From NCBI GenBank assembly GCA_021773235.1, contig JAJFKL010000021.1:59540-123539 (forward strand): a DNA stretch of 64,000 nucleotides, in the 5' to 3' direction. Below are positions 24,427-40,120 of the stretch, piece after piece; positions within the stretch are counted from its first letter, which is position 1; each line of letters begins with the position of its first letter. Below the pieces are notes generated by a model. It was not told the origin of the DNA, did not search any database, and was given only the letters and a program-made list of their open reading frames with translations. Both the position numbers and the translations under genes were made by a program. The stretch is from Gammaproteobacteria bacterium (GTDB lineage Bacteria; Pseudomonadota; Gammaproteobacteria; Eutrophobiales; Eutrophobiaceae).

Positions 24427-24856
24427 ATTAGAAGACATTATTCGAACTGAGATTGAAGACTTGCATAAATTCTTTGTCGGCTGGTTTACGGGCGCACTAG
24501 ATGCCAGTCATTTTGAACAAGACTTTCATGCGCGTTTTGATGCCGACTTTTTATTGATCCCACCTGCGGGAATAATTCTTTCATTAGCAGAATTAAGCAC
24601 TGGCATCAAAAGCACCTACGATACTAACCCTGATTTTCGTATCGCTATTCGCAACGTTAAAATTCAACGTATTCTAGATAATGAAATTATCGCAACTTAT
24701 GAAGAATGGCAGCGTAATGCCCTCGCCTCTACACCACCAGACAATGGTCGACTGGCGACGGTCATCTTCAAAATGACAGAGCCTTTGCAATGGTTACATG
24801 TACATGAGACCTGGATGCCTGAGAATGTACAAAAAGCAGGTCCTTTTGATTTTTAA
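24413..24856 (+). CDS. NTF2/SnoaL-like (DUF4440-like) protein
   Basis: LHKFFVGWF...ATYEEWQ...RLATVIF...WLHVHETW pattern; family assignment from memory of the motif. Confidence 0.55.
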   Translation: MMANELEDIIRTEIEDLHKFFVGWFTGALDASHFEQDFHARFDADFLLIPPAGIILSLAELSTGIKSTYDTNPDFRIAIRNVKIQRILDNEIIATYEEWQRNALASTPPDNGRLATVIFKMTEPLQWLHVHETWMPENVQKAGPFDF

Positions 24857-24900
24857 GGCTTATACGCATTTCAATATCTTAACAATATAACATAAAAACC

Positions 24901-25326
24901 ATGTATAAATTACCGGAATATAATCGTTCATCAAATTGCCAGTCAGGTTTTGGTGAGGCTTATTTATTCCCCGTTTTAATTGGTCTGGCTATTTGTATTT
25001 ATCTTCTACTACCGGGCGTTAAGGCGCTTTACGATGATGGATTAACTATACCTGCTATCGTTCTTGGTGTTTCCGGACTGTTATGTAGCCTTTGGTTGGC
25101 CACACAACTTTTTGGCGATTATCTCAATTTATTCATCATCATAATCTTCGCCGCTATTTGGATGATGAGCAGTATCTGGATAATGAGTCACATTGGCAGT
25201 AGCACTGAATCGATTTTTAATAACAGTGATTTCCTCCAATCAGCTATCCCCTGTGGATATTTTCTAATTCACGCAATCATTTTAACGATCATCAATTTTC
25301 TTAATAAAGATTCAAACGATCACTAA
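24901..25326 (+). CDS. Hypothetical membrane protein (about 4 TM)
   Basis: Hydrophobic segments; fills the gap in a co-oriented gene run. Confidence 0.6.
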   Translation: MYKLPEYNRSSNCQSGFGEAYLFPVLIGLAICIYLLLPGVKALYDDGLTIPAIVLGVSGLLCSLWLATQLFGDYLNLFIIIIFAAIWMMSSIWIMSHIGSSTESIFNNSDFLQSAIPCGYFLIHAIILTIINFLNKDSNDH

Positions 25327-25338
25327 TAGTTTATTACG

Positions 25339-25707
25339 ATGCCTAAGAGTGACGCCAAGTTTCCTTTTCATTTCAAAATAATGCAGGGCATTGGAGAGTT
25401 AGGCGATAAGTTACTGGGTGAATCTCGTAAATTACCGGGCTTTATAGTTGAGTTGAATAGTGATGGGCACATCATTAAAACAGTAAGCGAAGCAGATAAC
25501 CTTGATTTCATTCAGCTTGATGAAAAATTTAAGTCTTATCTTATGATTGATGTCATCGATCATGGTGAATATATTTATATTAAATGGCAAGATCTATCAA
25601 AAGAACATATTGAAACCCTTTTGAATACTAAGTTTATAGAAAAGGACTTTGTAGATTCCATGGGCATCACTAAAGGTTACACGCGTACTGGTAGCGTTAT
25701 GTTCTAG
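25339..25707 (+). CDS. Hypothetical protein
   Basis: 122-aa ORF tightly packed in the run; no recognised motif. Confidence 0.6.
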   Translation: MPKSDAKFPFHFKIMQGIGELGDKLLGESRKLPGFIVELNSDGHIIKTVSEADNLDFIQLDEKFKSYLMIDVIDHGEYIYIKWQDLSKEHIETLLNTKFIEKDFVDSMGITKGYTRTGSVMF

Positions 25708-25711
25708 GGTT

Positions 25712-26242
25712 TTGTTTATTGTGAATATAGAAAAAACACTCCATCTATCTTCGTTGCTAATTTGCAGCTTGTTCATCATCGACTTTATTTTCCCAATTCT
25801 TTTTTTAGATTACTTTGGAGTAAGAGTTTCTGAGTTATGGATTTTTTTAATTTACACATGTTACACAATATGGGCCGCATTTATATTAATTGTAATAGTC
25901 AGCCTCGTTTACGATTCTATTAAAGAAAAAGTATATGATAAAAAACATAAAGCTATCCTCAATGATGAGCTCGAGTACGTTTTAACTGAACATCAAAAAC
26001 AAATCCTATTTGAAAAAGAAATTATCGAAGTCAGCCTAATGTTTAATAGTCGTGAAACTGGAATTTTCTCGATTGAAGGAGATAGTCCCATTATTAATTT
26101 TCATGTGAAAGCGAATAATGCAGTGCCTGCTGAAAAAGAACTACAGGATTATTTCAAAAAATTCCTTGATAAAAATATCACGGTTATGCCAGGCCAACCT
26201 GAGAACCACAGTCGTTGGTATAGGACAATTCATTTAAATTAA
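25712..26242 (+). CDS. Hypothetical protein with 2 N-terminal TM segments
   Basis: 176-aa ORF, TTG start uncertain; hydrophobic N-terminus and soluble C-terminus. Confidence 0.5.
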   Translation: MFIVNIEKTLHLSSLLICSLFIIDFIFPILFLDYFGVRVSELWIFLIYTCYTIWAAFILIVIVSLVYDSIKEKVYDKKHKAILNDELEYVLTEHQKQILFEKEIIEVSLMFNSRETGIFSIEGDSPIINFHVKANNAVPAEKELQDYFKKFLDKNITVMPGQPENHSRWYRTIHLN

Positions 26243-26274
26243 GACAAGCCCTGTTTTTTTAGGTTAACTGAACA

Positions 26275-26772
26275 TCAGATCTCATAGTTCCTTAAGGCTT
26301 GTGCAACATCTGTATTAAATTCAATATGATGATGATCTACCGCCTTAACATCATAACCAATTAATTCTCTGGTTTTCGGTACAACGACTTTAAGACTGGT
26401 ATAAAGATCTTGAAAAAAAGCATTATCTTTAAAACCAAAATCTTGTCTCCATGTTAGATAATCATTCGCTTCTTCATACCATTCACATGCTTCAACGACA
26501 AGGTGTAACCAGAGGATTGGGTTATTAATATCTGCATCTCGGTATTCATCGGAGACCACGATTGCGACCACATTATTACTATCAGTACTATTCTGAATCG
26601 ATATCACCCTTAGCGATTCTTCTGACAAGGGATTAGTTTCCTTCTCAACACTTAGAATAAGGTTTTTATTCTTATAACAATCCGCGAGGGCCATTATTCT
26701 ATTTTTATCGTGCACAATAATATCCTGGTAACTATCTTGTTTAATAAGGTGGTAATAGTCGTCTAAATCCAT
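26275..26772 (-). CDS. Hypothetical protein
   Basis: Probable start at ATG 26772 (MDLDDYY), overlapping the ARH 3' end by about 32 bp; no recognised motif. Confidence 0.6.
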   Translation of the reverse strand: MDLDDYYHLIKQDSYQDIIVHDKNRIMALADCYKNKNLILSVEKETNPLSEESLRVISIQNSTDSNNVVAIVVSDEYRDADINNPILWLHLVVEACEWYEEANDYLTWRQDFGFKDNAFFQDLYTSLKVVVPKTRELIGYDVKAVDHHHIEFNTDVAQALRNYEI

Positions 26773-28132
26773 GACCCAATACCCACAACATAAAAAAGGC
26801 ATTTCGGAGTAAGAGGCGTATAGGATCCATCCACTGTGTGCGCCCTACCTGTTTGGACCATTTCACAACAGCAAGTTCTTCGCCGAGTAAGCGAATATAA
26901 TTTTTATCCCTTGGCCAATCTTTTAAATTATCTATCCAATCAGCTGGTATTCCTGCCTTCCCGACATTTGCACCCACAATGCCACCGATAATAGCCGCTA
27001 CTGTATCGGTGTCACCACCACAAGTAATCGCCTCTGTGATTGCTTTTTCGTAATCATCGTTATGCCGAAGAACAATCTGTACAACAACAGGAAGTGTATT
27101 ATAAATATAACCACTCACGCCTTTTTCCTGTTTATTTTCCTGACAATACTCCAATGCTGATTGACCTGACTTTGCACTTTCAACCGCAAGGCTTAACAGA
27201 ATACGAAGTTCCTCGTCATCACCAATGATACCCCCCAGTTCTATTAAACAGTTATCTACCGTTAACGGCACACCCTGCACGTTTCTCGCAGTGAGTTCAG
27301 CAACGATCTTCGAGCCTTTGATTGCCTTAGGATCAGTATGGGTAATTTGTGTATTGATGGTGACGAGTGCTGAACGTAATGTTTCATCATCATAGGCATA
27401 GGTGCCCAATATCGCTGTGCGCATCGCGGGACCATTACCGGCACTGAATACACCGCTTTTAGTTACCGGAATAAATAACCATAATTTTAAACAAGCACGT
27501 AATGTTGCCATTCCTATGCCTGCGGGTAACCCTAGGAACCACCAGCGTAGGGACCAAGCTAGTGCGTTTGAAAATAATTTTAGATCTTCTTTACTTTCTA
27601 TTAAGGCATGCGCAACAATACAGGTGTGTTCTGTATCATCCGATAGCATCCCGCAGCCAAATATAAATCGATGCCGCAATGGTATTACATTGAGTTTTTT
27701 AATTCGGCGCGAAGAAAGCCCTTCGAAAGGTAAGCCAATCGCATCTGCCACCGCTGTTCCAAATAGGCAACCTTGTAGCGCGTGATGAAATTTCAACTTG
27801 GTAGGATTGGAATACGTTGCTACCTCAACTGGCTCACAATACTGTTCTAGCTCGGCCTCAGTCAGGTAGCTGTTATAACTGTGTCGAAAATTGTTATCAA
27901 AACGATGAGTTTCTGATATCAAAAAAGGAGCCCATCCTTCACTATCGAGAGGAAAGATTTCGTAGCGATATGGTTCATCAAGTTCTTCATGCTCAGATAA
28001 GTTGAGTATCATCCCTTCTGAAAAGGAGACATCCTGAGACAGTGAATAAGGTGCTGCAAACCAAATCGTACAACTCTTCTCAAACGCTTTTTTAACGATA
28101 ATTTGGCTACGCTTGGTTTGATGCATAATCAA
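26741..28132 (-). CDS. ADP-ribosylglycohydrolase (DraG/ARH family) with an N-terminal extension of about 115 aa
   Basis: GCLFGTAVADAIG, SDDTEH, GNGPAMR, THTDP, GGDTDT metal-binding motifs. Confidence 0.9.
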   Translation of the reverse strand: MIMHQTKRSQIIVKKAFEKSCTIWFAAPYSLSQDVSFSEGMILNLSEHEELDEPYRYEIFPLDSEGWAPFLISETHRFDNNFRHSYNSYLTEAELEQYCEPVEVATYSNPTKLKFHHALQGCLFGTAVADAIGLPFEGLSSRRIKKLNVIPLRHRFIFGCGMLSDDTEHTCIVAHALIESKEDLKLFSNALAWSLRWWFLGLPAGIGMATLRACLKLWLFIPVTKSGVFSAGNGPAMRTAILGTYAYDDETLRSALVTINTQITHTDPKAIKGSKIVAELTARNVQGVPLTVDNCLIELGGIIGDDEELRILLSLAVESAKSGQSALEYCQENKQEKGVSGYIYNTLPVVVQIVLRHNDDYEKAITEAITCGGDTDTVAAIIGGIVGANVGKAGIPADWIDNLKDWPRDKNYIRLLGEELAVVKWSKQVGRTQWMDPIRLLLRNAFFMLWVLGHGFRRLLPPY

Positions 28133-28176: not shown

Positions 28177-28611
28177 ATGACGAATGAAGATAAGATCATA
28201 ATCTCAGAGCTTATAGAAAGTAAGGTGATTGTTGAAGAAAACCAGCTGATTATTAATCGTAATGCTGAAAACTTCGAACAAATAATCGCTTTAAATGACA
28301 TAAAACAGATCAGTATTGATGGCGACATTAAATATATACGCTGGTTTTTATTGATGCTGATCCCGATCAGCATTGGACTTTATGCATTCAGCGCTAGCGA
28401 AACACTACCCACTTTTCTTGTATGGGTATTACTCACAATTAGTGGTGTCATTGGTCTCGTTACAATGGTTGCTCCACCCGAAAGAGATTTTATAGTGGTT
28501 AATATGAAACAAGGTGATGATATTAGACTACCTATGGATGACAAAAGAGAAGATGAACTTGAATTCATCAGAGAAACTAACGTGCACATATATAGCCTAA
28601 ACAAGAAATAA
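28177..28611 (+). CDS. Hypothetical membrane protein (2 TM)
   Basis: 144-aa ORF with a central hairpin of TM segments; its stop abuts the folA stop. Confidence 0.6.
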   Translation: MTNEDKIIISELIESKVIVEENQLIINRNAENFEQIIALNDIKQISIDGDIKYIRWFLLMLIPISIGLYAFSASETLPTFLVWVLLTISGVIGLVTMVAPPERDFIVVNMKQGDDIRLPMDDKREDELEFIRETNVHIYSLNKK

Positions 28612-29097
28612 TTACTTTTTTTCTAATACAACAAAACTGTAATCAAAGTCATTCTTTTCATCAGCTGTGTAGGCCTCTCTAGAAACCTCACTCCATTCGG
28701 CGCGATTAAATTCAGGGAAAAAAGTATCACCCTCTATCTCTGTATGTACTTCAGTTAGATACAATCGTGTTGCTTGATCTAATGTGTGTTTATATATTTC
28801 TGAGCCGCCGGTAATCATAACTTCTTCGATATCTTTGCAATGTTCGAATATTTCATCAATGCTATTTAATATTGTACAACCTTCTGCCTGATAGGTTTTA
28901 TCACGGGTAATAATAATATTTTCTCTACCGGGCAAGGGCCTGCCTATGGAATCATGGGTTTTACGCCCCATCACTATGGGTTTACCCATACTGATTTTCT
29001 TGAAGTTTTTAAGATCCGCTGAAATATGCCATGGCAATGAATCATTGTTCCCGATAACACGGTTACGATCCATAGCGACTATTATTGAGAGTTGCAT
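28612..29097 (-). CDS. folA: Dihydrofolate reductase
   Basis: IVAMDRNRVIG, LPWHISADL, MGRKT, RPLPGRENI, GGSEIY, GDTFFP. Confidence 0.97.
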   Translation of the reverse strand: MQLSIIVAMDRNRVIGNNDSLPWHISADLKNFKKISMGKPIVMGRKTHDSIGRPLPGRENIIITRDKTYQAEGCTILNSIDEIFEHCKDIEEVMITGGSEIYKHTLDQATRLYLTEVHTEIEGDTFFPEFNRAEWSEVSREAYTADEKNDFDYSFVVLEKK

Positions 29098-29118: not shown

Positions 29119-29724
29119 TTAATTTCTGGAACTAATACGGACAACATCACGTTTCATTTGTTCTAATAAACCATCAACGCCATTATTCTTGGCGATCGCT
29201 CGATATTCATTGCGGTAGCTTTGTACCAAGCTCAAATTTTCAACCGTGAAATCATATGCAAACCAAATGTTCACAAACCGTTTCATACGGTATGAGATGG
29301 GAATCTCTATATTGGTCTTATCCTTTACTATAATTGTGTCTACGGTGGAATAGCCTTCAGTGTCAGAACTCTCAGTAACATATTCGACTCGTTCACCCGT
29401 ATATTGTTTGATGCGCTGCCAATATGTATTGAGCAAAATTTGTTCAAACAAGGAGATAAATTGATTCTTTTGTTCATCATCGGCAATCTTCCAGTTTGTT
29501 GCCAGTATACGTCGGGACATCTCCTTAAAATTGATACGTTCTTTGACTATTTGAAATACAATATCTTTGCGTTGATCTTCGTTGAGATTTTTATCATTTA
29601 ATATAGACAGGACTTGTTCGACTGTTTTCTTAACGATCTTACCCGGAGATTCTTCAGTGGCTTGTAGTCCAAATGGTAGTAGACACATAAATAATGCAAT
29701 CAATACTATTTTCTTTAATCTCAT
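29119..29724 (-). CDS. MlaC/Ttg2D/HpnM-family periplasmic lipid-binding protein
   Basis: Signal peptide; INFKEMSRRILATNW, QKNQFISLF, ISYRM, AYDFTVENLSLVQSYRNEY, GVDGLL pattern. Confidence 0.85.
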   Translation of the reverse strand: MRLKKIVLIALFMCLLPFGLQATEESPGKIVKKTVEQVLSILNDKNLNEDQRKDIVFQIVKERINFKEMSRRILATNWKIADDEQKNQFISLFEQILLNTYWQRIKQYTGERVEYVTESSDTEGYSTVDTIIVKDKTNIEIPISYRMKRFVNIWFAYDFTVENLSLVQSYRNEYRAIAKNNGVDGLLEQMKRDVVRISSRN

Positions 29725-29748
29725 ATATTTTCCTTAATCAGAAATTGA

Positions 29749-32700
29749 TTATTGATACTGCTTAAAATTGACGCGAAATAATAAGCTATATAAAACCGGC
29801 ACAAGTAATAAGGTTAATAAGGTTGCGAAGGCCAAACCAAAAATTATTGAAATCGCCATAGGCCTAAACATAGCGGTGCCACCCCACCATAATGGCATCA
29901 TACCAAATACCGTTGTTGCGGTTGTTAGCAATATTGGTCGTAATCGTTGTATGCACGCGGCAATAACTGCGTCAGTTTCTTCTTTCCCAAGCTCTTCAAC
30001 TTCTATCTTTATTCTATCCAGTAAGACGATAGCATTATTTATAATAATACCGGACAGAGATATCAATCCTAATATAGTAAAGAATCCGAATGATGATCCT
30101 GCTATGAATAACCCATAGGAAACACCAATTAGACCCAATGGTATGGTGGTTAAGATTATGAACGGTCGTCTCACAGAATTAAATTGACCAACAAGAAGTA
30201 ATAATATCAACATTGCGGCAATGGGTAATTTAGCCGCAATGGAGGCGTTAGCCTGACCAGACTCTTCCGCTTCACCACCTTCCTCGTAGCTATAATCTCT
30301 TGGCCAACTCGCTTGTGCTTCTTCTAACCATGGCGATAGTGATGAATTTACTTCTGCAGCGGTCGCTTCTGGCCTGAGTTGCGCTTTCAGAGTAATCGTT
30401 CTATTTCGATCTCGGCGTTCAATCTTGCCCGGTTCAAAAACCAGCTTAACGTCAGCGACCTGCTTTAAAGGAACTGATTCTCCAGTCGATTGGGAATAGA
30501 TACTTGTTCCATCTAATTTACTGATATCTTGTCTATCTGCAGCAATGGAACGTAATGTAATTGGTATTAACTTATCATCTTCACGATATTCTGTCATATC
30601 AATGCCTGACAGACTTGCTTTTAAGGAATAAGCAACATCATCGCTTGTTACGCCTGCGCGTCTTGCGCGTTCTTGGTCAACGTCGACTAATAATTTCTTT
30701 GTTTTTTTACCCCAAGTACTTTTTACTGATGAAATTAAAGACTCATCATATAAGCGATTTGTGACCTCATCGGCAATTTTATAAAGCTGTTCAAACTCTG
30801 GGCCTGATATTCTAATCTGTATGGGGTAACCGACCGGCGGGCCATTTTCAAAGCGACTCAGTTTAACGCCTAAATCAGGATAATTCTGTTTCGCATATCC
30901 TTCGATACCTTTAATGACTTCTTCGGCATCTTTACTATCTACAGTATTAGCAACAAAAAACGAATTAGCCGGATTCTGTTTAGGTGGATCAAGTGCTAGG
31001 TCAAAACGTGGACCACCATCTCCGATAAATGTCAGCCAGTTTTTTATTTTTGCCTGGCCATCTTTAGGATTAAAAAATGTTTGTTCTACATATCGATCAA
31101 TATCAGACATGACAGCCTGACTAGTTTCAATGGAAGTTCCCAGTGGCATTTCAAAACTACCGTTAAAGACAGGGTCTTCAGACTGTTCAATAAATATTTT
31201 GGGAACATATCCCATGACTTGAATGGCAGAAAAGAATAGTGCCAACATTAATAGTCCAAACCAGACTTTATGTTTCAATGCAGTCAATAAGACTTTTCTA
31301 TAAATGTTATAAACAAAACTATTATATTGTTCTCCATTTTCATGCTTTAAAGATTTTTTACATAGCGCTTTCGATGCCAACATGGGTATAACAGTCATCG
31401 CCAAAAACCATGAGGTAAGTAAAGTTATAGTAACCACATAAAAAATATCTGCAGTGTATTCACCAACCGCAGACTCTGCTAATGCTATAGGCATAAACGC
31501 GGCGCCTGTCGTCAATGAAGATACGAGTAAGGGTAAAAGTAATTCTCGGCCTGATTCAATTGCCGCTTCAACAGACGATAATCCTTGATCATATTTAACG
31601 ATGACTGATTCAACCATAACGATGGCATTATCAACTAATAAACCCAGTGAAATAATTAACGCTGCTAGGGAAATCTGATTAATCGTAATACCAAATATTT
31701 GCATCAGATAAAGCGCTATGATCATAGCCGATGGGATAAGTGCTGCAACAACGATACCTGTCCGCAAGCCTAAAGTGATCAACATGACTAAACACACAAT
31801 AGCAACAGCCTGAAATAAATTACTGATAAAATTATCGACATTATCTTTTACCAGATTCGCCTGAAACCAAATTTTTTCCAATTCAATACCCCAAGGGTAT
31901 TGTTGACGAATAAGTGGAATCGCTTGGTCTAATTTTTCCCCTAGCTTCAAAATATCGCCACCATCGCGCATAGAGATCGCAATGGCTAAAGAAGGTTTGC
32001 CATTAACACGTGTCACGCTTTTTGGCGGGTCAGTATAATCACGATAAATATTTGCTATATCTCCCAAGTAAACAACATTACCATTTGGTAATTGAATTAC
32101 TGTACTGCGCAACTCATCAATCGATTCAAAATTACCAGTAGGTTCAAGCACGATACGTTCGCGGCCAGTGAGGATATCCCCGCCAGAAGATAAAATATTA
32201 GCTGTTGATAAAACACCCGATAATTGTTGTGGTGAAACGCCCAATTCTGCTAATCGCGCATTGTTATATTCAACAAAAATTGATTCTTCTTGGGCACCAT
32301 GTATATCTACCTTTGCGACTTCCTGTATTTTTAACAATCGGTCACGTATATCATCAGCAACCTCTTTTAGTTCAGCATAGCTATAACCATCACCGGTCAG
32401 GGTATAGACACTACCAAAGACATCACCAAATTCATCATTAACAAAAGGACCCTCTATACCATCTGGCAGGTCCTGTTTAACATCTTCCACTTTACGTCGC
32501 ATATCATCAAAGATGGGACGCATGTTTTTATAAGACTCTAGAAAGTTAACATTAATAATTGAAATGCCATTACGGGATTCACTTGTAATGAAGTCCACTT
32601 CTGGCATCTCTTGAACTTTCTTTTCCAGTTTGTCAGTAACCAACAACTCAACTCGCTCTGGATTAGCACCAGGAAATTGTGTAGAGATAACGGCAACACG

Positions 32701-32826
32701 AACAACAAAGCCTGGATCACGGGCCTTGGGTAACTGTACGTAGGCACTGATACCACTAAGTATCAGGATGGTCACTAATATTATCGTGACGCGATCATAA
32801 CGAAATGCGAGTTGAGTAATGTTCAT
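29749..32826 (-). CDS. RND efflux permease
   Basis: 1025 aa; FPGANPERVELLVT, NDEFGDVF, TM4 GLLVDNAIV, TM11 RLRPILLTT. Confidence 0.93.
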   Translation of the reverse strand: MNITQLAFRYDRVTIILVTILILSGISAYVQLPKARDPGFVVRVAVISTQFPGANPERVELLVTDKLEKKVQEMPEVDFITSESRNGISIINVNFLESYKNMRPIFDDMRRKVEDVKQDLPDGIEGPFVNDEFGDVFGSVYTLTGDGYSYAELKEVADDIRDRLLKIQEVAKVDIHGAQEESIFVEYNNARLAELGVSPQQLSGVLSTANILSSGGDILTGRERIVLEPTGNFESIDELRSTVIQLPNGNVVYLGDIANIYRDYTDPPKSVTRVNGKPSLAIAISMRDGGDILKLGEKLDQAIPLIRQQYPWGIELEKIWFQANLVKDNVDNFISNLFQAVAIVCLVMLITLGLRTGIVVAALIPSAMIIALYLMQIFGITINQISLAALIISLGLLVDNAIVMVESVIVKYDQGLSSVEAAIESGRELLLPLLVSSLTTGAAFMPIALAESAVGEYTADIFYVVTITLLTSWFLAMTVIPMLASKALCKKSLKHENGEQYNSFVYNIYRKVLLTALKHKVWFGLLMLALFFSAIQVMGYVPKIFIEQSEDPVFNGSFEMPLGTSIETSQAVMSDIDRYVEQTFFNPKDGQAKIKNWLTFIGDGGPRFDLALDPPKQNPANSFFVANTVDSKDAEEVIKGIEGYAKQNYPDLGVKLSRFENGPPVGYPIQIRISGPEFEQLYKIADEVTNRLYDESLISSVKSTWGKKTKKLLVDVDQERARRAGVTSDDVAYSLKASLSGIDMTEYREDDKLIPITLRSIAADRQDISKLDGTSIYSQSTGESVPLKQVADVKLVFEPGKIERRDRNRTITLKAQLRPEATAAEVNSSLSPWLEEAQASWPRDYSYEEGGEAEESGQANASIAAKLPIAAMLILLLLVGQFNSVRRPFIILTTIPLGLIGVSYGLFIAGSSFGFFTILGLISLSGIIINNAIVLLDRIKIEVEELGKEETDAVIAACIQRLRPILLTTATTVFGMMPLWWGGTAMFRPMAISIIFGLAFATLLTLLLVPVLYSLLFRVNFKQYQ

Positions 32827-32828
32827 GT

Positions 32829-33923
32829 CTAATCGATTAAAACTTTTAGTCCCGGCCGAATAACATTAACACCTGCGACAACCACTTTATCACCATCCTT
32901 AACGCCCTCAATGATTTCCAAGCCAGTGGGAGACAATTCACCTGTGCTTACTGTTTGTCGTTTGACCAGACCCACGCCTGTTTCATTTGTTTCCTCGACG
33001 AGGAAAACATAACGGCCTGTCACATCTTCGCCGACAGCAACGGCAGGAATTATAAAGTTCGATTTGCCATTGCTCATATCAAAAGCAAAAGAAACTTGAG
33101 CGGCCAACCCGGAGCGAAGTCCATTTGAGGTATCATTTAATGCTACAGTCACTGTGTAGGTTGCACCCGCGATAGATGCAACGCCTACTTCTGTGACCTT
33201 TGCAGGAAATATTTTTTCAGGAATTGAACTAAAACTTACAGCAGCGTCCATATCTCTTTTTATCAAGGCGATCAGGCTTTCCGGAACTGCTAATTCAACT
33301 TCCAGGCGATCACCACAAGTAACAGATACAATAGTTTGACCGGCGGAGACATTTTCATTCATCTCTGTCAGTACATCAGCGACCCCACAAGGCTCGGTCG
33401 CTTTTAATTTAGTATAGGAAACATTTAAGCGCGCCAATTCCAATGCTTTTCTTGCAACACTGACTTGCGCCTTGCTTGACTCTGCCGTAGCTCTAGATGA
33501 ATCCAGGTCATTTCTGGAAGCATTATTATTTTCATACAAACCTTTTACCCTTTCGAAGTTAGATTGAGCATTACGTAAAGTAGCTTCTACTTGTGACAAG
33601 TTTGCAAAGGCTTGTTGTGCTTCCAGTTGATATTGTGAAGGATCGATTTCTGAAATTAGTTGTCCAGCTTTTAATTGATCGCCCACTTCAACCGGGACAG
33701 ATTGAATCGCCCCGCCTACTCTAAAACTTAAGTTGGATTCCTGACCTGCCTTGGCCAATCCCGAAAAAGTACGCATGGTCCCGGCTTCAATAGATGAGAC
33801 TGTGATATAACGGACTGGCCGTAATTCTATCTCTGCGTTAGTTGTATCATCCGTGTTTTCGCCACAGGCACTCAAGAGAAAAAATGAGATTGCTGGCACA
33901 CATAGTTTTATTAAGTTGTTCAT
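32829..33923 (-). CDS. RND periplasmic adaptor (lipoprotein MFP)
   Basis: Start reassigned to ATG 33923 (MNNLIKL...LLSAC lipobox); LSFRVGG...VEVGD lipoyl motif. Confidence 0.9.
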   Translation of the reverse strand: MNNLIKLCVPAISFFLLSACGENTDDTTNAEIELRPVRYITVSSIEAGTMRTFSGLAKAGQESNLSFRVGGAIQSVPVEVGDQLKAGQLISEIDPSQYQLEAQQAFANLSQVEATLRNAQSNFERVKGLYENNNASRNDLDSSRATAESSKAQVSVARKALELARLNVSYTKLKATEPCGVADVLTEMNENVSAGQTIVSVTCGDRLEVELAVPESLIALIKRDMDAAVSFSSIPEKIFPAKVTEVGVASIAGATYTVTVALNDTSNGLRSGLAAQVSFAFDMSNGKSNFIIPAVAVGEDVTGRYVFLVEETNETGVGLVKRQTVSTGELSPTGLEIIEGVKDGDKVVVAGVNVIRPGLKVLID

Positions 33924-33948
33924 ATTTCCGTTCCCGAAACAGGCTGAT

Positions 33949-36297
33949 TTAACGATTCCTCGCCTTGTAATATTGATCCAGCTCTTGATACCAATATTCG
34001 AATCCATCCTCTGTCAGTAATAGATCAAAATTTGCTACCGAGCGTTGTATTTCTATCCAATCGATCATAAAAGTATATTGTGCTTCTACCGCAGAGAGGT
34101 TTGCTGCTAGCGACGCATCTTGCGCATCAATTAAATCTGTAATTGACACAGCACCTTTTGAATATGCATCGATTACCAAAAACAGGTTTTCCTTCGCTGC
34201 ATCAGCAGCGTCTCTTGATAAGCGAATTGCAGGATAACTCCCACTTGCTTGTTGTATTGCAGACCTTACACGCGCTTCTATTTGTTCTTTTGTATTTGCA
34301 CGTTGATAGCGGCTTTGAATTAATGTGTTATTAGCTCTTGAGACTGCTGCCTTTCTGGCTCCACCAGCAAATAAAGGTAAGGTTGCCTGCAAACCGATAG
34401 TCCATTGGTCATCAGATAGATTTGAATTATCTCCCAAACCACCTCGTTCAATATTACGTCCATATTGTGTGTTTAGGTTTATATCAGGCACATAATATGC
34501 GCGTTCAGTGGCGAGTAATTGTCGTTGGTTAGATGAGATAATAAAGTCTGTTTGTTCTAATTCGGGTGAATTATTGAGTGCACGTTCGACTTCAAATTCA
34601 GTAAAAACATCAAAGCTAAGAGGATTATCAAAAAAGCGTTGAAAACGTTCACTATCGAGAATGACCAATAAATCAGCAATACCATTATCGGTTACTGCAA
34701 TGGCTTCCGATAGAGTCATATTCAATTGTCGTTTTAATTCTGTTTCAGACTGATCGCGTAATGATTGAGCTGAATACAAATTGCGTCTATCGGTCGCCAA
34801 CTGGCTTTGCCAGCGTAACACTTCTGAGCGATCGGTATAGCCAATCTTTAAACGTGTCTCTGCTAATTCAAGATTTGTTTCTGTAACAGCCAGATTGGAT
34901 CGTCTTACTTTTTCTGTCGCATTTGCTAATAATAACTGTAAATAGGCCGTTGAGCTTGTACTTATCACGTTCAGAATACTGCTTCTCAATGCAGCAGATT
35001 CAGCTTGCTGAAGCAACTTAGCTATCTCGTAGCCCGATTTATTAGTTTCAGAATAAATAACCTGACTCGCTGTCAGTTCTGAATCAGATGAACGTTGTGC
35101 CTGCGATAATCCAGCACGGTCGCGATCAATCTGCGATATGCCAGCACCAATACTAAATTGTGGTAGTAATGGTGAACGTGCATTTTTGACATCATCCTTT
35201 GATAACGCCAAATCCAGCTTATCAATTTGTAATGAAAGGTTCGAACTAATCGCTTTTTGTATTGCTTCAACCAAACTCACAGAGACTTTGTTGTTAGTAA
35301 CTTCTTCATAAAGCAGATCTGCCGATTCCAAAGATTGCCATTTAGGAGAAAAACCAATTGCCCTTGCCGTGCGCATATTGATTGCTAACTTTTGTGGTTG
35401 TTCAAGTTCGATTTTTAATGTTGATGCATTTGAGCCCAGTAATATACTCTGCATATATAAAGCAATGCGCCTTGCATAGCGTATGGTATCCACCTCACGC
35501 CCACTTGAAGTGGCAAGCAGACCCATTTCAAGTTCGACTCGGCCTAGTAAAGAGAAACTTGGAATCTTACGTTCAACCAAGTTACTGGCAAAGCGCTTGA
35601 AATCCTCTTCACTAAAGCGTAACAACGGTGGGACATAAATCGCATCTATTGTTGGTGGCAGTGTTTGTAGAGTACTTTCCGGATCATCAATAACCGGTAA
35701 TAAGGATAACTCAAACCCGAGTTCTTCCTGTACGCTATAAGTTGCTCCACGTAATTGTGGCAATGCTTCCAGGAACAATTTATCAACTACGATTGCCAAA
35801 TGTTTATATTGGTTTAATTCATAAAACTGACGCAGATCATCAGCAATGGTTCGCCCTTCACTGACATAGACATAATTATGTTTACCACTAGCTTCGTCTT
35901 TATATGGTAATTCCTGCAATATACGATCAGCCACAATCGGAGCAATAACCGGCTTGTTTAATGTTTCAATTTGAGCAGCTTGATGTGAACTCAACAAACC
36001 ATTGGCAATGATCATGTCCACTGAAGGATCATTCAATAATTCATGTAAGCTTTTATTAATTCCATCAACACGCCAGTTACCATGCAAGACCTTATCTTGA
36101 GGAAATTCTATATTGAATTCACCAGCAGTTAATTCCTTTACTTCTTTTATGATTTGATTGATTGGAAGTATTTCACGTTTGATTGGTCCATCTAAAACAA
36201 TGCCAACGCGAATAGTATCTACAGCTTGTACTGAAGACAGCGAAAGAATAAAGAGTATAAAAAGATAGTTAATTTTTTTAACTAATTTTGACATCAT
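33949..36297 (-). CDS. TolC-family outer-membrane factor fused to an N-terminal ABC-type periplasmic substrate-binding domain
   Basis: Signal peptide, then about 310 aa of periplasmic-binding-protein-like alpha/beta domain ending LAINMRTARAIGF (typical ABC_sub_bind/PF04392 tail), then OEP repeats (SLVEAIQKAISSN, LLPQFS, AYLQLL, YYVPDINL, LPLFAGG, YSKGAVSITDLIDAQ). Start at 36297 or 36294. Confidence 0.85.
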   Translation of the reverse strand: MMSKLVKKINYLFILFILSLSSVQAVDTIRVGIVLDGPIKREILPINQIIKEVKELTAGEFNIEFPQDKVLHGNWRVDGINKSLHELLNDPSVDMIIANGLLSSHQAAQIETLNKPVIAPIVADRILQELPYKDEASGKHNYVYVSEGRTIADDLRQFYELNQYKHLAIVVDKLFLEALPQLRGATYSVQEELGFELSLLPVIDDPESTLQTLPPTIDAIYVPPLLRFSEEDFKRFASNLVERKIPSFSLLGRVELEMGLLATSSGREVDTIRYARRIALYMQSILLGSNASTLKIELEQPQKLAINMRTARAIGFSPKWQSLESADLLYEEVTNNKVSVSLVEAIQKAISSNLSLQIDKLDLALSKDDVKNARSPLLPQFSIGAGISQIDRDRAGLSQAQRSSDSELTASQVIYSETNKSGYEIAKLLQQAESAALRSSILNVISTSSTAYLQLLLANATEKVRRSNLAVTETNLELAETRLKIGYTDRSEVLRWQSQLATDRRNLYSAQSLRDQSETELKRQLNMTLSEAIAVTDNGIADLLVILDSERFQRFFDNPLSFDVFTEFEVERALNNSPELEQTDFIISSNQRQLLATERAYYVPDINLNTQYGRNIERGGLGDNSNLSDDQWTIGLQATLPLFAGGARKAAVSRANNTLIQSRYQRANTKEQIEARVRSAIQQASGSYPAIRLSRDAADAAKENLFLVIDAYSKGAVSITDLIDAQDASLAANLSAVEAQYTFMIDWIEIQRSVANFDLLLTEDGFEYWYQELDQYYKARNR

Positions 36298-36301
36298 TAC
36301 A

Positions 36302-37093
36302 CTATACGGCAATAGGCGCAGTGATTTTTGGATGCGCCTCGTAATTTATTAACTCAAAATCTTCGTAACTAAATGCCAGTATATCGTTTATATTTGGGTT
36401 GATTCTCATCTCGGGAAGCGGAAAAGGTTTACGTGATATTTGTTCTTCAACTTGTTCAAAATGGTTTAAATAAATATGTGCATCACCAAAGGTATGCACA
36501 AACTCTCCAACTTTAAGTCCAGTTACCTGTGCAATCATCATTAATAGCAAAGAGTAAGATGCAATATTAAACGGCACGCCCAGAAAAATATCTGCGCTAC
36601 GTTGGTAGAGTTGGCAAGAGAGCTTTCCATCAGCAACATAAAACTGAAACAAGGCATGGCAAGGCATCAACGCCATTTGATCCAATTCACCGACGTTCCA
36701 TGCACTGACAATCAAGCGACGCGAATCTGGGTTTTGTTTTATTTGTTCAATGACGTCTGTGATTTGATCTATAGTCTTGTCTGTCGTGTTCCATGATCGC
36801 CATTGTGCACCATAAACCGGACCTAAATCACCATGCTCATCAGCCCATTCATCCCAGATGGATACACCATTATCCTTAAGGTATTGAATGTTTGTGTTAC
36901 CTTGCAAAAACCAGAGCAATTCATAAATAATCGATTTCAGATGACATTTCTTGGTTGTCACTAATGGAAAACCATTATTTAAATCAAATCGCATTTGATA
37001 ACCAAAGACGCTAATAGTCCCGGTACCCGTACGATCCTCTTTTTTTGTGCCATTTGATTTTACATGGCGTAATAAATCCAGATATTGCTGCAC
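36302..37093 (-). CDS. thyA: Thymidylate synthase
   Basis: [36 protein letters not shown]; GTG start. Confidence 0.98.
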
Positions 37094-37099
37094 TTTTAG

Positions 37100-37891
37100 T
37101 TAATTTCCTTTAGCTCGAAAAGCGATGCCAAATAAGATGAGACCGAATAATATCATAGGAGCAGAAAGCAACATGCCCATAGTTACGAAATCAAATGCAA
37201 GATAGCCAATATGCGAATCGGGTACCCGGACAAATTCAACCATAAACCTGAAAACGCCATATCCAAACAGGAACAATCCTGAAATTGCCATGGCCGGTCT
37301 GGGTTTGGATGAAAACCACCAGAGGATAATAAATAATATCAGGCCTTCAAGAAATGCTTCGTAAAGCTGCGACGGGTGTCGAGCAATCCCGCCTGCCGCA
37401 GGGTCTGGAAAAATCATCGCCCATGGCAAATTACTTGGTCCACCCCAGAGTTCGCCATTAATAAAGTTACCAATCCGGCCGGTTCCTAATCCAATAGGAA
37501 CAACGGGGGCGATAAAATCAGTAACATTGAAGAAGCGCTTATTGAATTTATGGCAAAAGAACCAGACAGCAGCAAAAACACCTAGCAGGCCACCATGAAA
37601 AGACATGCCTCCTTGTTGAAGATAAATAATCTCTATCGGGTGCTGAAGATAATAAGGCAGATTATAAAAAATCACTGACCCTAGCCGACCACCAATAATA
37701 ATACCCAGCATGGCATAGAAGATAAGGTCTGAAACCTGTTCTGAACTATATCCCCACTGCTCACGGCTACCGCGAAGCCGCAATAACCACCAAGCCGCTA
37801 AAATTCCAAGTATGTAACTGATTCCATACCAATGTATCTGTAGAAACCCAAGGTTTAGAGCAACAGGATCAATATCGGGATAGGTCATCAT
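37100..37891 (-). CDS. lgt: Prolipoprotein diacylglyceryl transferase
   Basis: IHWYG, GGRLG, GGMSFHGG, GRIGNFINGELWG, RHPSQLYEA. Confidence 0.97.
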   Translation of the reverse strand: MMTYPDIDPVALNLGFLQIHWYGISYILGILAAWWLLRLRGSREQWGYSSEQVSDLIFYAMLGIIIGGRLGSVIFYNLPYYLQHPIEIIYLQQGGMSFHGGLLGVFAAVWFFCHKFNKRFFNVTDFIAPVVPIGLGTGRIGNFINGELWGGPSNLPWAMIFPDPAAGGIARHPSQLYEAFLEGLILFIILWWFSSKPRPAMAISGLFLFGYGVFRFMVEFVRVPDSHIGYLAFDFVTMGMLLSAPMILFGLILFGIAFRAKGN

Positions 37892-38049: not shown

Positions 38050-38925
38050 ATGACAGGAAGACAGACGATTTCAAGCGTGAGATTAGAAATTCAAAAAATC
38101 GACCATTTACCCGCTATGCCATCGATAGCGCAAGAGATTCTTATTGCCTCAAATGATGGCAGCAGCGGCTTAGATGATATTGCAAAGATAATAAAAAAAG
38201 ACCCCGCCCTATCTGCAAAAATTATAGGTATGTCTAATTCTGCATTTTTCGGTTTTGGACGGAAAGTCACAACACTGGAACAAGCCATCATTAATGTTCT
38301 CGGTTTAGATTTAGTAAAAGGCTTTGCACTAAGTTTGGCGATGAGCAGTGTATTTAATCCGGAAAAGTGTCAACAGTTCGATTTAAAAAAATATTGGTCT
38401 AGTGCATTTATCACCGCAGAGCTAGCCTCTGGATTTGTAAATCTCATTGATTCAGACCAGACCCTAGACCCTAACCAGCTCTATCTACATGGATTGTTAC
38501 ACAACATAGGTATCCTGGTATTAGTCGACAGGTTTCCAAATATCATGTCCGAGTTATTTACTACTGCAGCAGAAAATAAAGAACAACGTTTAATCGATTA
38601 CGAAACAGAAACTATTGATTTCAACCATCATGAAGCAGGTGCCTGGTTAGGACATAAATGGAAACTCCCATTTGAGATTATCGATATTATCGAACATCAC
38701 CACAATCTGAAATATCAGGAAAGAAATGCTGATACTGTCGTATTAATAGGCCTATGTTCACGAATTTCTCGCCAGTGGATTTTGCAGACGAACTACGATC
38801 CTATGCAAGAGGTTGAGGCTATCAAATCACTTAATATCGATAAAAATGCTTTAGAAAAATATATATCTAAATCATATAAAAAACTTGAAAACATAAACCA
38901 GCTAGTTGATGAGATTGCGAGATAA
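38050..38925 (+). CDS. HDOD domain protein
   Basis: LPAMP, DPALSAKIIGMSNSAFFG, GLLHNIG, NHHEAGAWLGHKWKLP, HHH. Confidence 0.9.
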   Translation: MTGRQTISSVRLEIQKIDHLPAMPSIAQEILIASNDGSSGLDDIAKIIKKDPALSAKIIGMSNSAFFGFGRKVTTLEQAIINVLGLDLVKGFALSLAMSSVFNPEKCQQFDLKKYWSSAFITAELASGFVNLIDSDQTLDPNQLYLHGLLHNIGILVLVDRFPNIMSELFTTAAENKEQRLIDYETETIDFNHHEAGAWLGHKWKLPFEIIDIIEHHHNLKYQERNADTVVLIGLCSRISRQWILQTNYDPMQEVEAIKSLNIDKNALEKYISKSYKKLENINQLVDEIAR

Positions 38926-40120
38926 TACTATGGAACCAATAAAAGACATCATGGGTAAAGTTGAAATACCAGCTGTTGTTAATGCCCAGTTTATGCAGTT
39001 GCTAAACTCGCTATCTGGTCTGAGAATTATCTCGAATTTAGGTAATAAACAACTCAATCGAGATCGCTTAATTGATGCCATGATGCACGCGGTCTTCGAA
39101 CATCTTGAAGCAGAAGAATTGTCACTCTATTTACTTGAAGAAGATTCGCTTAAATGCGTTGCAAACCTAGACTGGAGTGATTTTACTAAAAATAACTCTT
39201 CAATCAATAATAAAACTCATAGCTGTTTAATGAGTGATGGCGTCTTGGGAAAGACAGCCACAAACAAAGAAATTATTCATATACCCAATTGTAAAACATC
39301 AGACGAAAACTTGATCCATTATAAAGCTAATGAGAAAGAAATCGGTTCTTTGATCTGTGCGCCTTTATTGGTTAATGATTCCTTATTAGGTGTCATTGAG
39401 TTAATTCATCCTGAACCAAACCATTTTGATTCATGGCAAGAACACTCCGTGATTATCTACGCAGATTTAATGAGCATGCTCTTAAATAACGACAAACTTA
39501 TGCACAATATGAAAAATATTGTCGATGTTCGTACTGAGGAACTTCGTAATGCCCTTGAAGAGTCTGAAAAATTAAAAGCACGCTATGAAGAAATGTCGGT
39601 TATTGACCCATTAACTAAACTATTTAATCGCCGCTATTTTTATACAGAAGTCACCGCAAGTATGGCCAGGGCAAAACGCTACGCTCAACCCTTCAGTCTG
39701 ATGCTGATGGATCTGGATCATTTTAAGATGGTGAACGATTCACATGGTCATGAATGTGGAGATAGCGTTTTAAAAACCATTGCGGAGATACTTACTCAGT
39801 TCACCCGCGAAGGAGATACGCTTGCTAGAATTGGTGGCGAGGAATTTGTGCTGGCACTGCCCGAAACTAATCCCGTAGGCGCACAAAAACTTGCTAAACG
39901 AATCATATCGACAATTCAAGAAACAGATTGGGATTGCCGGGGAACCAAAATGGATATAACAATGAGCATCGGCCTTTCTTCATTACGTCATCATGAAAAT
40001 GATTTGCTTGATGATGACTTTCAGGTAAGTGACATTCTTAGGGAAGCTGATCGTGCCTTATACTTTGTCAAAGGTCATGGAAGAAACAACATCAAATCTT
40101 ATTCAGAGATTCAAGAATAA
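38906..40120 (+). CDS. GAF-GGDEF diguanylate cyclase
   Basis: GAF domain (SLICAPLL...GVIEL), DPLTKLFNRR, DLDHFKMVNDSHGH, REGD I-site, GGEEF. Start may be ATG 38929. Confidence 0.92.
   Translation: MMRLRDNTMEPIKDIMGKVEIPAVVNAQFMQLLNSLSGLRIISNLGNKQLNRDRLIDAMMHAVFEHLEAEELSLYLLEEDSLKCVANLDWSDFTKNNSSINNKTHSCLMSDGVLGKTATNKEIIHIPNCKTSDENLIHYKANEKEIGSLICAPLLVNDSLLGVIELIHPEPNHFDSWQEHSVIIYADLMSMLLNNDKLMHNMKNIVDVRTEELRNALEESEKLKARYEEMSVIDPLTKLFNRRYFYTEVTASMARAKRYAQPFSLMLMDLDHFKMVNDSHGHECGDSVLKTIAEILTQFTREGDTLARIGGEEFVLALPETNPVGAQKLAKRIISTIQETDWDCRGTKMDITMSIGLSSLRHHENDLLDDDFQVSDILREADRALYFVKGHGRNNIKSYSEIQE

Follow-up and report, generated by a model that had tools for sequence, protein, structure and literature searches.

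A TolC-type duct with a fused, predicted periplasmic-binding domain in an apparently unstudied variant of tripartite efflux pumps

Results

Organization of the locus

The window analysed, a stretch of 64,000 nucleotides from a gammaproteobacterial genome that is 81% complete, contains a tight run of seven co-oriented genes on the minus strand. ORF calling placed them in the order lgt (37100..37891), thyA (36302..37093), the gene for an outer-membrane factor (OMF; 33949..36297), and the genes for an adaptor lipoprotein (MFP; 32829..33923), an RND permease (29749..32826), and a MlaC-like periplasmic protein (29119..29724), followed by folA (28612..29097; the name is a reading of the sequence). 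The thyA gene ends 4 nt before the OMF gene, the OMF/MFP, MFP/RND, and RND/MlaC-like gaps are of 25, 2, and 24 nt, and folA starts 21 nt after the MlaC-like gene. The original prediction had described four co-oriented genes separated by at most 25 nt; the ORF calls agree with it, and the tight run in fact comprises seven genes. The backbone genes located upstream (thyA) and downstream (folA) from the pump were both detected in relatives by tblastn, with 72–93% identity for thyA. Scans of the locus for promoters and terminators performed no better than scans of shuffled sequences, at or below chance. We inferred the operon structure from gene spacing alone. None of the 12 flanking ORFs, located between 23.2 and 42.2 kb, encodes an ABC permease or ATPase, in agreement with the original reading of the vicinity.

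RND permease and adaptor

The MFP contains 364 residues if counted from the ATG codon of MNNLIKL (the longest frame opens at 34007) and harbors a lipobox, LLSAC, in its translation. It matched TIGR01730 (RND_mfp) with 223.3 bits for a cut-off of 94.9, in addition to HlyD families. The RND permease (1025 residues) belongs to a MexK-like clade. Residues 12–1016 matched positions 10–1020 of the 1021 positions of the ACR_tran model (PF00873) with 555.5 bits, and the closest solved chains were MexK (653 bits) and 6VEJ (622 bits), both over the full length. We take 6VEJ to be TriC.

The residues of the AcrB proton relay are D407, D408, K940, and R971. Alignment with E. coli AcrB showed that D407-D408 in TM4 correspond to Asp399-Asn400 (31627..31632, minus strand), K940 in TM10 to Asn930 (30037..30039, minus strand), and R971 to Arg963. 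Thus, the DN pair in TM4 and the Asn at the position of Lys940 reported from the sequence were both confirmed. The AcrB-type relay set is incomplete in this permease, which retains D399 and R963. Replacement of the D408/K940 charge pair by Asn/Asn reduces the relay to one aspartate, D399, and Arg963. This replacement is a property of the clade: among 41 RND permeases encoded next to related OMFs in public loci, the combination of DN, NN, and R was found in 33, DN with TM10 located off the contig in three, and DT with NN in two.

The OMF carries a predicted periplasmic-binding domain in front of a TolC body

The OMF contains 782 residues counted from an ATG codon, the longest frame opening at the TTG codon at 36312. 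All of its parts are encoded by the minus strand. The translation starts with a type I signal peptide (residues 1–25, ...SSVQA|VDT; 36223..36297) devoid of a lipobox cysteine. The following domain, which resembles ABC-type substrate-binding proteins (SBPs), spans residues 26–329 (35311..36222) and was delineated from an AF2 model, fold alignment, and a family profile, with no direct Pfam match. A linker of about 7 residues (approximately 330–336; 35290..35310) connects it to a TolC-type body (residues about 337–782; 33952..35289). DSSP analysis of the full model located the last strand of the domain at residues 327–329, the first TolC strand at 338–340, and a helix at 342–352, with a pLDDT of 70 for block 331–340. 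The TolC body was identified by two OEP repeats (PF02321; residues about 346–759, 153.5 bits), both of which were also recovered in the genome scan, and by TIGR01844 (134 bits, residues 346–759). The AF2 model of the whole OMF, computed as a monomer (pLDDT 87, pTM 0.75), displays the TolC protomer fold, with four strands and long helices. In a Foldseek search with this model, TolC from E. coli and Klebsiella ranked first (E 2e-20, TM normalized to the target of 0.74–0.86), and CD0873, 3LFT, and 3LKV were retrieved at about E 5e-11. The sequence LAINMRTARAIGF, previously quoted as the end of the binding domain, was found within the OMF frame, and no stop codon separates the domain from the TolC body.

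Modeled alone, the binding domain reached a pLDDT of 92.5. This model aligned with 6HNI over 287 of 295 residues (Z 25.4) and with 3LFT (Z 24.9; VIA), the next families scoring at most 18. A profile built from 61 N-terminal domains retrieved 3LKV (2.8e-6), 3LFT (1.9e-4), and 6HNI (9e-4) from the PDB sequences; profile searching and structural alignment succeeded where a single-sequence search of the domain against the same sequences returned nothing useful. The N-terminal domain is therefore predicted to adopt the two-lobe fold of type I periplasmic-binding proteins, the solved members of PF04392 being its nearest matches. The ORF, the AF2 model, the fold alignment, and the profile all bear out the proposal that an SBP-like domain and a TolC body share one open frame.

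The assignment to PF04392 itself was only partially recovered by Pfam. Co-occurrence of PF04392 and PF02321 on one chain, proposed as a check, was present in precomputed annotations of 10 of the 120 listed relatives, but not in this OMF, the N-terminal 343 residues of which had no Pfam match even at E ≤ 10. A PF04392 scan of the whole genome was also negative. Since the Pfam model misses this domain, the PF04392 label rests on relatives, the family profile, and the fold. PF04392 clusters in the ESM Atlas at 0.86 provided a lead only.

Thirteen residues are invariant across all 61 N-terminal domains, whatever the genomic context. An invariant arginine pair and a nearly invariant third arginine (domain residues R248, R251, and R252) are located on one helix. 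Conserved residues were tested roughly for concentration at strand C-ends, where the ligand cleft is usually located. Of 47 conserved positions, 13 fall within these zones, which is not a significant excess (odds ratio 1.8, p 0.08; control, odds ratio 1.6, p 0.13). The lipobox was absent from all the fusions whose N-termini were examined.

Distribution and genomic context of the fusion

Searches with residues 1–340 retrieved 399 clusters (90% identity) at E ≤ 1e-3, nearly all of 770–800 residues with OEP. At 50% identity, 1181 clusters scored E ≤ 1e-30. Among the best 150 of the latter, 114 had representatives of at least 700 residues with the same layout, and an assembly artefact or read-through was therefore rejected. 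Only 35 matches were short (188–601 residues), and these were fragment-like, indicating that the domain is essentially always fused. The 171 confirmed matches in species genomes were distributed among Gammaproteobacteria, Desulfuromonadales/Thermodesulfobacteriota, Myxococcota, Acidobacteriota, Gemmatimonadota, Planctomycetota, and Bacteroidota; a sample of 400 genomes from the class gave strong matches in 15. Culturable carriers include the Desulfuromonas isolate of locus L040 and Methylomonas.

We inspected 68 public loci, 15 of which were too short to judge. The fusion was followed by MFP and RND genes in 41 loci and by an MFP gene, an ABC gene with two ATPase-ABC2 units, and an ABC2 permease gene in seven, so that pump genes followed it in 48 of the 53 judged loci. 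The remaining five had no pump across 9 kb downstream. The ABC genes adjoining the fusion in relatives encode ABC-2 exporters with an adaptor. The analysis thus supports an SBP-TolC fusion encoded in a conserved operon with an MFP and an RND pump and, at the present locus, with no importer partner nearby. In the class sample, an RND permease with at least 46% identity was present in 11 genomes, seven of which also contained the fusion. Two genomes (G064 and G262) encoded an MFP and a DN/NN RND permease without an adjacent OMF, and eight of the 15 genomes containing the fusion showed no orthologue of the RND permease, only two candidates being scored per genome. These results indicate that the pairing of the fusion with the RND permease is not obligatory and that the fusion, which is conserved across phyla, may be encoded next to an RND pump, next to an ABC exporter, or without a neighboring pump. 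We found no description of an SBP-TolC fusion in the open-access literature, within which the original statement that no characterised example is known holds.

The MlaC-like gene belongs to the backbone

The MlaC-like protein (201 residues) matched PF05494 with 135.1 bits for a cut-off of 26, which places it in the same family as the MlaC and HpnM carriers of the Mla and HpnN-HpnM-HpnS systems. It differs from these carriers in scoring below the equivalog cut-offs for HpnM (TIGR03481, 79.2 versus 160.1) and for MlaC proper (NF011697, 53.7 versus 195), in being encoded away from mla and hpn genes, and in being kept with thyA and folA. The genome encodes six MlaC paralogues, three of which adjoin genes of the RND superfamily: two are located next to HAE3/MMPL-like genes, and the third is the gene beside the pump. 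Another paralogue is a bona fide HpnM (160.8 bits for a cut-off of 160.1) encoded next to an MlaA-like gene and the gene for HpnB (410 bits).

The MlaC-like gene adjoins the pump genes and lies outside the conserved pump module, as it followed the RND gene in only two of the 41 fusion-MFP-RND loci. A complete (100%) genome of the same genus, G161, harbors lgt-thyA-mlaC-folA with no pump at this site and no match to the N-terminal domain anywhere. In a genome of the same family, G326, the same backbone is present and the pump genes, on a different contig, are not accompanied by an mlaC gene. Therefore, the MlaC-like gene is a member of the thyA-folA backbone, with the three pump genes located between it and thyA. 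In one public locus, L006, an MlaC-like gene is instead located between lgt and thyA. Together, these results indicate that the MlaC-like gene is independent of the pump module and is not a fourth component, contrary to the proposed four-part system with an MlaC shuttle. Complex prediction with the N-terminal domain and the mature MlaC-like protein gave scores of 0.02 and 0.00 (mark, 0.32), which weigh neither way.

Ligands of the folate/pABA type were considered for the binding domain on the basis of the position of the pump between thyA and folA and of an AbgT transporter gene beside an orphan fusion. Both were dropped: insertion into the backbone explains the former, and the latter is a single case.

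Discussion

The locus is a variant, apparently unstudied and widespread, of tripartite efflux pumps. The best explanation, to which we assign a probability of about 60%, is a three-gene RND efflux pump located within an lgt-thyA-mlaC-folA backbone of housekeeping genes and representing an uncharacterised pump type, the duct of which opens with a domain descended from the amino-acid binding proteins of PF04392. The RND permease would presumably expel amphiphilic compounds at the expense of the proton gradient. The closest solved RND permeases belong to the MexJK and 6VEJ-type pumps of Pseudomonas aeruginosa, which likewise combine a lipoprotein adaptor with a TolC-type duct. In MexK and 6VEJ, TM4 carries DD and the position of AcrB K940 is occupied by Arg, in contrast to the DN (rarely DT) and Asn of the present clade. 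The ducts of these pumps (OprM/OpmH) are ordinary, are not known to carry a binding domain, and are encoded elsewhere, whereas the duct described here carries a fused binding domain and is encoded in the pump operon.

The domain shares its fold with the PF04392 SBPs CD0873 (6HNI), SP1069 (3LFT), and VC_1101 (3LKV), to which it is related by profile-level homology, and profile alignment revealed a common C-terminal motif, N-x-T-A...G. The tyrosine of CD0873 is retained through purification. These SBPs are free or lipid-anchored, supply ABC importers, and have Tyr, Trp, or Phe as ligands (PMC6816091, PMC10443332). In contrast, the fused domain fails the Pfam model, has no importer nearby, and occurs almost only in fusion with TolC. 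Two specificity positions reported for VC_1101, Ala246 and Tyr262 (PMC6816091), are occupied by Leu and Thr in the fused domain according to the profile alignment.

The domain is predicted to join the TolC body, via about 7 residues, at the start of a TolC-type equatorial belt. Three copies of the domain should therefore ring the duct on its outside, in the mid-periplasm, and this ring would be clear of the tip where the adaptor docks, a placement deduced for a monomeric model from linker length and TolC topology. Since the same domain and the same invariant residues accompany different inner-membrane engines, the domain is taken to serve the duct itself. Its presence with ABC-type pumps and on orphan ducts argues against a role tied to the substrate of one pump, and capture of such a substrate is probably not its function. 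A small ligand or a component of the envelope could be bound by the domain, which might in this way fix the place of the duct, stabilise it, or link it to a signal in the periplasm. Such a role would be comparable to that of YbjP on E. coli TolC, or of the lipid tail at the N-terminus of OprM-type ducts.

In PMC13082787, YbjP is described as a DUF3828 lipoprotein limited to some Enterobacterales and bound to TolC in a 3:3 ratio (PDB 9TG4, 9V52), outside the duct and from the equatorial belt to the membrane, in assemblies with both RND and ABC engines. The TolC-YbjP complex thus resembles the fusion in adding a periplasmic globular module to a duct that is used with RND and ABC engines, the placement being predicted in the present case. 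It differs in that YbjP is separate and lipidated, whereas the fused module is covalently linked, of the PF04392 type, not lipidated, and found in many phyla.

That the fused domain acts as a working receptor on the duct, gating or tuning export in response to a periplasmic small molecule or clamping the duct to peptidoglycan via a ligand resembling an amino acid, is a tentative proposal that we consider rather unlikely. The clamping version, in which the domain is an envelope anchor replacing the lipid tail absent from these ducts, is also rather unlikely. It is consistent with the absence of a lipobox in every fusion N-terminus examined, with the clustering of R248, R251, and R252 on one helix, and with the presence of the domain regardless of the pump type. 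Contact with peptidoglycan has been proposed for the equatorial belt, where the domain would begin, and YbjP provides an example of a separate protein able to anchor the non-lipidated TolC (PMC13082787). The free amino acids Trp, Tyr, and Phe are ligands of solved PF04392 members (PMC10443332, PMC6816091), as might suit an anchor. However, YbjP itself gave no convincing peptidoglycan binding (PMC13082787), and conservation at strand C-ends was not significant (p 0.08).

A sensory role, in which binding of a ligand to the domain would gate or regulate the duct and thus make it a ligand-gated exit channel, appears unlikely. The full two-lobe fold is retained with high model confidence, 13 residues are invariant across phyla, and periplasmic-binding folds serve as sensor modules in receptors, the domains of GABA-B, mGlu, and CaSR being present in the list of fold matches. 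The equatorial belt of TolC lies far from the gate at the tip. The 7-residue tether would place the domain at this belt, distant from that gate, and we know of no allosteric path between the two; conservation at strand C-ends was not significant (p 0.08).

Capture of the pump substrate in the periplasm by the domain, followed by its transfer to the pump, is highly unlikely despite the SBP fold, the pump genes that follow the fusion in 48 of 53 judged loci, and the carriage of sterols by SBP-fold proteins such as BstB in methanotrophs. The domain is found with engines as unrelated as RND and ABC-2 and also on orphan ducts, and it would be located on the outside of a closed barrel into which, to our knowledge, no lateral entry exists.

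A four-part trans-envelope system for lipids, with the MlaC-like protein as a shuttle between the RND pump and the duct's SBP domains, is very improbable: the adjacent, co-oriented genes with their 24-nt gap, the three of six MlaC paralogues adjoining RND-superfamily genes, the hopanoid genes for HpnB and HpnM beside an MlaA-like gene, and the HpnN-HpnM-HpnS carrier chains proposed in a preprint (PMC12324291) are outweighed by the two of 41 loci with an MlaC-like gene after the RND gene, by the pump-free backbone sites of G161, which lacks the fusion, and G326, by the MlaC-like gene between lgt and thyA in L006, and by the occurrence of the fusion with ABC exporters and alone. The MlaC-like bystander calls for caution against over-reading gene adjacency.

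For the three-gene pump with its PF04392-descended domain, the Asn/Asn replacement of the D408/K940 pair offers a natural test case for the number of titratable residues that an RND motor needs. TolC-type ducts are regarded as passive pipes opened by adaptors. Recent work on YbjP indicates that a periplasmic partner had been overlooked even for TolC of E. coli; in the present case, the duct itself includes a full ligand-binding fold. The fused domain has been kept for a very long time, in at least seven phyla, whether the duct is used with RND pumps, is used with ABC pumps, or stands alone, and its ligand would tell whether anchoring or regulation of exit ducts from the periplasmic side is possible. 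If the domain were a working receptor, three ligand-binding modules would be built into TolC-type channels of many phyla, and no outer-membrane efflux duct with a sensor or anchor domain of its own would have been known before. The receptor duct would here be paired with an RND clade whose proton relay operates with a single aspartate.

A tripartite pump with a binding domain fused to its duct

ORF calling in the window revealed a run of seven head-to-tail genes on the minus strand, separated by intergenic gaps of 2 to 25 nt. In order, these are lgt (37100..37891), thyA (36302..37093), the outer-membrane factor (OMF; 33949..36297, 782 residues, with two OEP matches at residues about 346-759 according to Pfam/NCBIfam), an adaptor lipoprotein (32829..33923, 364 residues, RND_mfp 223 bits, with a lipobox), an RND permease (29749..32826, 1025 residues, full-length ACR_tran match of 555 bits), an MlaC-like gene (29119..29724, 201 residues, MlaC 135 bits), and folA (28612..29097). 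The original prediction described the four genes from the OMF to the MlaC-like gene; the genes, their spacing, and the peptide quoted from them were all borne out by the ORF and Pfam/NCBIfam analyses, and the tight run extends beyond four genes. Scans of the locus for promoters and terminators returned nothing above chance. The locus is shown to encode a complete tripartite pump, the duct of which bears a fused binding domain. Across the genome, a scan counted five genes for OMFs and six for full-length RND proteins, indicating that the fusion is a dedicated duct and not the only one of the cell.

Several other genes were observed around the run. A second full-length ACR_tran RND gene is located at window positions 1784-4849 (-) (602 bits; G000:C14:61323-64388 of the same genome). 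Six ORFs of 122-176 residues at 24413-26802 and 28177-28611 had no Pfam match at E<=1e-4, and adjoin a gene for a 463-residue ADP-ribosylglycohydrolase-domain protein (26741-28132). Genes for an HDOD-domain protein and a GAF-GGDEF diguanylate cyclase (38050-40120, +) are divergent from lgt; the HDOD gene is kept at the same spot by lgt in two genomes of the gammaproteobacterial class sample, G161 and G326.

The N-terminal domain of the OMF

Single-sequence searches with the first 343 residues of the OMF detected no Pfam family, even at E<=10, and no solved chain, and the PF04392 model had zero matches across the whole genome. Precomputed matches place PF04392 and PF02321 together on one chain in 10 of the 120 relatives listed. 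A profile built from 61 N-domains (A2) matched the PDB entries 3LKV (2.8e-6), 3LFT (1.9e-4), and 6HNI (9e-4). As modelled by AF2 (pLDDT 92.5), the domain aligned with 6HNI (Z 25.4, 287/295 residues) and 3LFT (Z 24.9), and the remaining binding-protein families gave Z<=18. Foldseek analysis of the whole-OMF model (pLDDT 87, pTM 0.75) ranked TolC structures at the top, followed by 3LKV, 3LFT, and 6HNI at about E 5e-11. The periplasmic-binding fold predicted for the N-terminus was thus recovered by the profile, the model alignment, and Foldseek. Together with the PF04392 hits of the relatives, these profile and model comparisons indicate that the domain is a genuine periplasmic-binding domain of the PF04392 lineage. 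The signal peptide of the OMF is of type I, devoid of a lipobox, and the N-termini of the relatives inspected look alike.

The MlaC-like gene

The original prediction combined the OMF, the adaptor, the RND permease, and an MlaC-like shuttle into a four-part lipid system. Comparison of gene orders does not sustain this proposal. Among 41 public loci in which an RND permease accompanies the fusion, an MlaC-like gene lies past the RND gene in only two (L002 and L041); at L006, it sits between lgt and thyA. G161, which belongs to the same genus and is 100% complete, displays the order lgt-thyA-mlaC-folA with an MlaC-like protein 80% identical and no pump there; nowhere in its genome does the N-domain have a match at E<=1e-10. 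The four-gene backbone recurs, free of the pump, in G326, a member of the same family, whose pump is located on another contig without an MlaC gene. G150 has an lgt-thyA-folA backbone and its pump elsewhere. These gene orders are most simply read as three pump genes placed between thyA and a resident mlaC-like gene, and they indicate that the MlaC-like gene is a bystander to the pump.

The genome of the window, which is 81% complete, encodes six MlaC paralogues, five of them outside the window (L070, L071, L072, L074, and L075). One is a bona fide HpnM located between HpnB and an MlaA-like lipoprotein gene, one is beside MlaE and MlaD in convergent orientation, two are beside HAE3/MMPL-like (RND-type) transporter genes, and one stands alone. 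The sixth, in the window, scores under the equivalog cut-offs of HpnM and MlaC. That hopanoid producers have mlaC-like genes in multiple copies has been discussed before, in a preprint (PMC12324291).

Distribution and gene context of the fusion

Residues 1-340 matched 399 clusters (90% identity) at E<=1e-3, nearly all of 770-800 residues with OEP. Among 1.84 billion cluster representatives, the A2 profile had 1181 matches at E<=1e-30; the totals rise to 2219 at E<=1e-10 and to 11083 at E<=1e-3. Among the best 150 representatives, 114 have at least 700 residues; the 36 shorter ones mostly stop within the TolC part or have odd tails and are fragment-like, as are the proteins of 188-601 residues with the domain, of which a search found only 35. 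Since these few short matches look like fragments, the binding domain is essentially never free. According to the record titles of the matches in species genomes, the fusion occurs in many gammaproteobacterial groups, Desulfuromonadales/Thermodesulfobacteriota, Myxococcota, Acidobacteriota, Gemmatimonadota, Planctomycetota, and Bacteroidota. In a class sample of 400 genomes taken evenly, 18 matched at E<=1e-10: 15 strongly (at least 200 bits; 14 in frames of about 800 residues) and three weakly, in frames of 400-470 residues resembling ordinary binding proteins.

A search of species genomes confirmed 171 stretches and left 68 loci for analysis, of which L003 and L041 represent a single gene whose ends lie on different contigs of the same assembly. 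In 41 of the 68 loci, the fusion is followed by an adaptor and an RND permease. Seven are of an ABC type, with an adaptor, a fused double-ATPase/ABC-2 permease (about 910-945 residues), and a second ABC-2 permease. Five have no pump across 9 kb downstream, the neighbours being housekeeping or unrelated genes. The other 15 loci have <2.1 kb downstream, too little to judge their context. In the window, no ABC components were found within about 6 kb on either side, in agreement with the original prediction of no nearby ABC permease or ATPase.

Further features were observed at individual loci. The pump occupies the thyA-folA position in six public loci (L001, L002, L003+L041, L006, L007, and L008), and the orphan duct of L036 is directly followed by an AbgT-family transporter gene (L036:10961-12484, +, 549 bits). 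Taken together, that position and this AbgT neighbour, a single case, might suggest a connection to folate or pABA. The operon is broken by foreign insertions at L007, by an NYN-domain protein gene between adaptor and RND (L007:12470-13810, -), and at L008, by an Mrr-type restriction endonuclease gene between OMF and adaptor (L008:11438-12334, +). In the closest public relative (L002:11383-15542), the alignments of adaptor and RND are both split into two pieces lying in different frames, reflecting either frameshifted genes or assembly errors. A gene for a small two-pore-type ion channel (Ion_trans_2) lies just past the RND in four loci, on the opposite strand (L004:15503-15874 and L013:15566-15925) or co-directional (L032:15578-16288 and L033:15822-16547). 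Two myxobacterial loci have a gene for an NTE-type patatin-like phospholipase with a cyclic-nucleotide-binding domain after the RND (L054:11872-13743 and L066:15882-17726). MarR-family regulator genes precede the operon in Desulfuromonadales-type loci (L050:8243-8662, L064:8106-8525, and L060:4273-4734); such regulators are typical of pumps responsive to aromatic or phenolic compounds.

The RND permease

The pump belongs to the tripartite RND kind and departs from known examples by the fused domain of the duct and by its relay residues. Of the solved chains, MexK comes closest to the permease at 653 bits, followed by 6VEJ (TriC) at 622 bits; AcrB-type chains score about 173 bits. Alignment with E. 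coli AcrB equates D407-D408 with D399-N400, K940 with N930, and R971 with R963, the four AcrB residues being those of its proton relay. The DN in TM4 and the Asn at the K940 position noted at the outset are therefore correct, whereas in MexK and 6VEJ the corresponding residues are DD and, at the K940 position, Arg. Of the 41 RNDs encoded beside the fusion, 33 have DN, NN, and R, three have DN with TM10 off the contig, two have DT and NN, two distant ones (34% identity) have DD/RN or DN/KN, and one is unreadable at these positions. By these tallies, loss of the D408/K940 charge pair is a hallmark of the RND clade. An RND of at least 46% identity was present in 11 class-sample genomes, seven of which also have the fusion; eight fusion genomes showed no such RND, with only two candidates scored per genome. 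In G064 and G262, an adaptor occurs with an RND of the same clade and no OMF alongside, so that loss of the pair is not confined to the fusion. The link between the fusion and the RND clade is strong, not absolute.

Proposed role of the domain

Only about 7 residues separate the domain's last strand (327-329) from the first TolC strand and helix (338-352) in the model. TolC-type proteins start at the equatorial belt, which has been proposed to contact peptidoglycan (PMC13082787). Because of this starting point and the short tether, three domains would encircle the duct on its outer face at mid-periplasm, clear of the tip at which the adaptor docks. An N-terminal lipid is common among OMFs. E. 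coli TolC has none, and the lipoprotein YbjP holds it at 3:3 with RND and ABC pumps; YbjP is dispensable for efflux in the laboratory (PMC13082787). The fused domain is similar in that it lies at the same protein end, without a lipid, and occurs with both engine types; it is also present on orphan ducts. For these reasons we favor, by analogy, a role belonging to the duct itself: the domain would position, stabilize, or regulate the duct via something that it holds. That it acts as an anchor is possible, if doubtful; that it acts as a sensor or gate is unlikely, and substrate capture appears quite improbable.

The ligands of solved PF04392 members are Tyr, Trp, and Phe, and these proteins serve ABC importers (PMC6816091; PMC10443332, Table 1). 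Conserved positions of the domain showed no significant strand-end enrichment, which counts against any claim of a preserved pocket. Thirteen residues are invariant in all 61 N-domains, irrespective of gene context.

Automatic annotation already sees both halves of the OMF, as JGI names for some relatives show; no description of an OMF-binding-domain fusion was found in the open-access literature. The four-part lipid system, which had made the finding most striking, is not supported; the fusion architecture is widespread and conserved.
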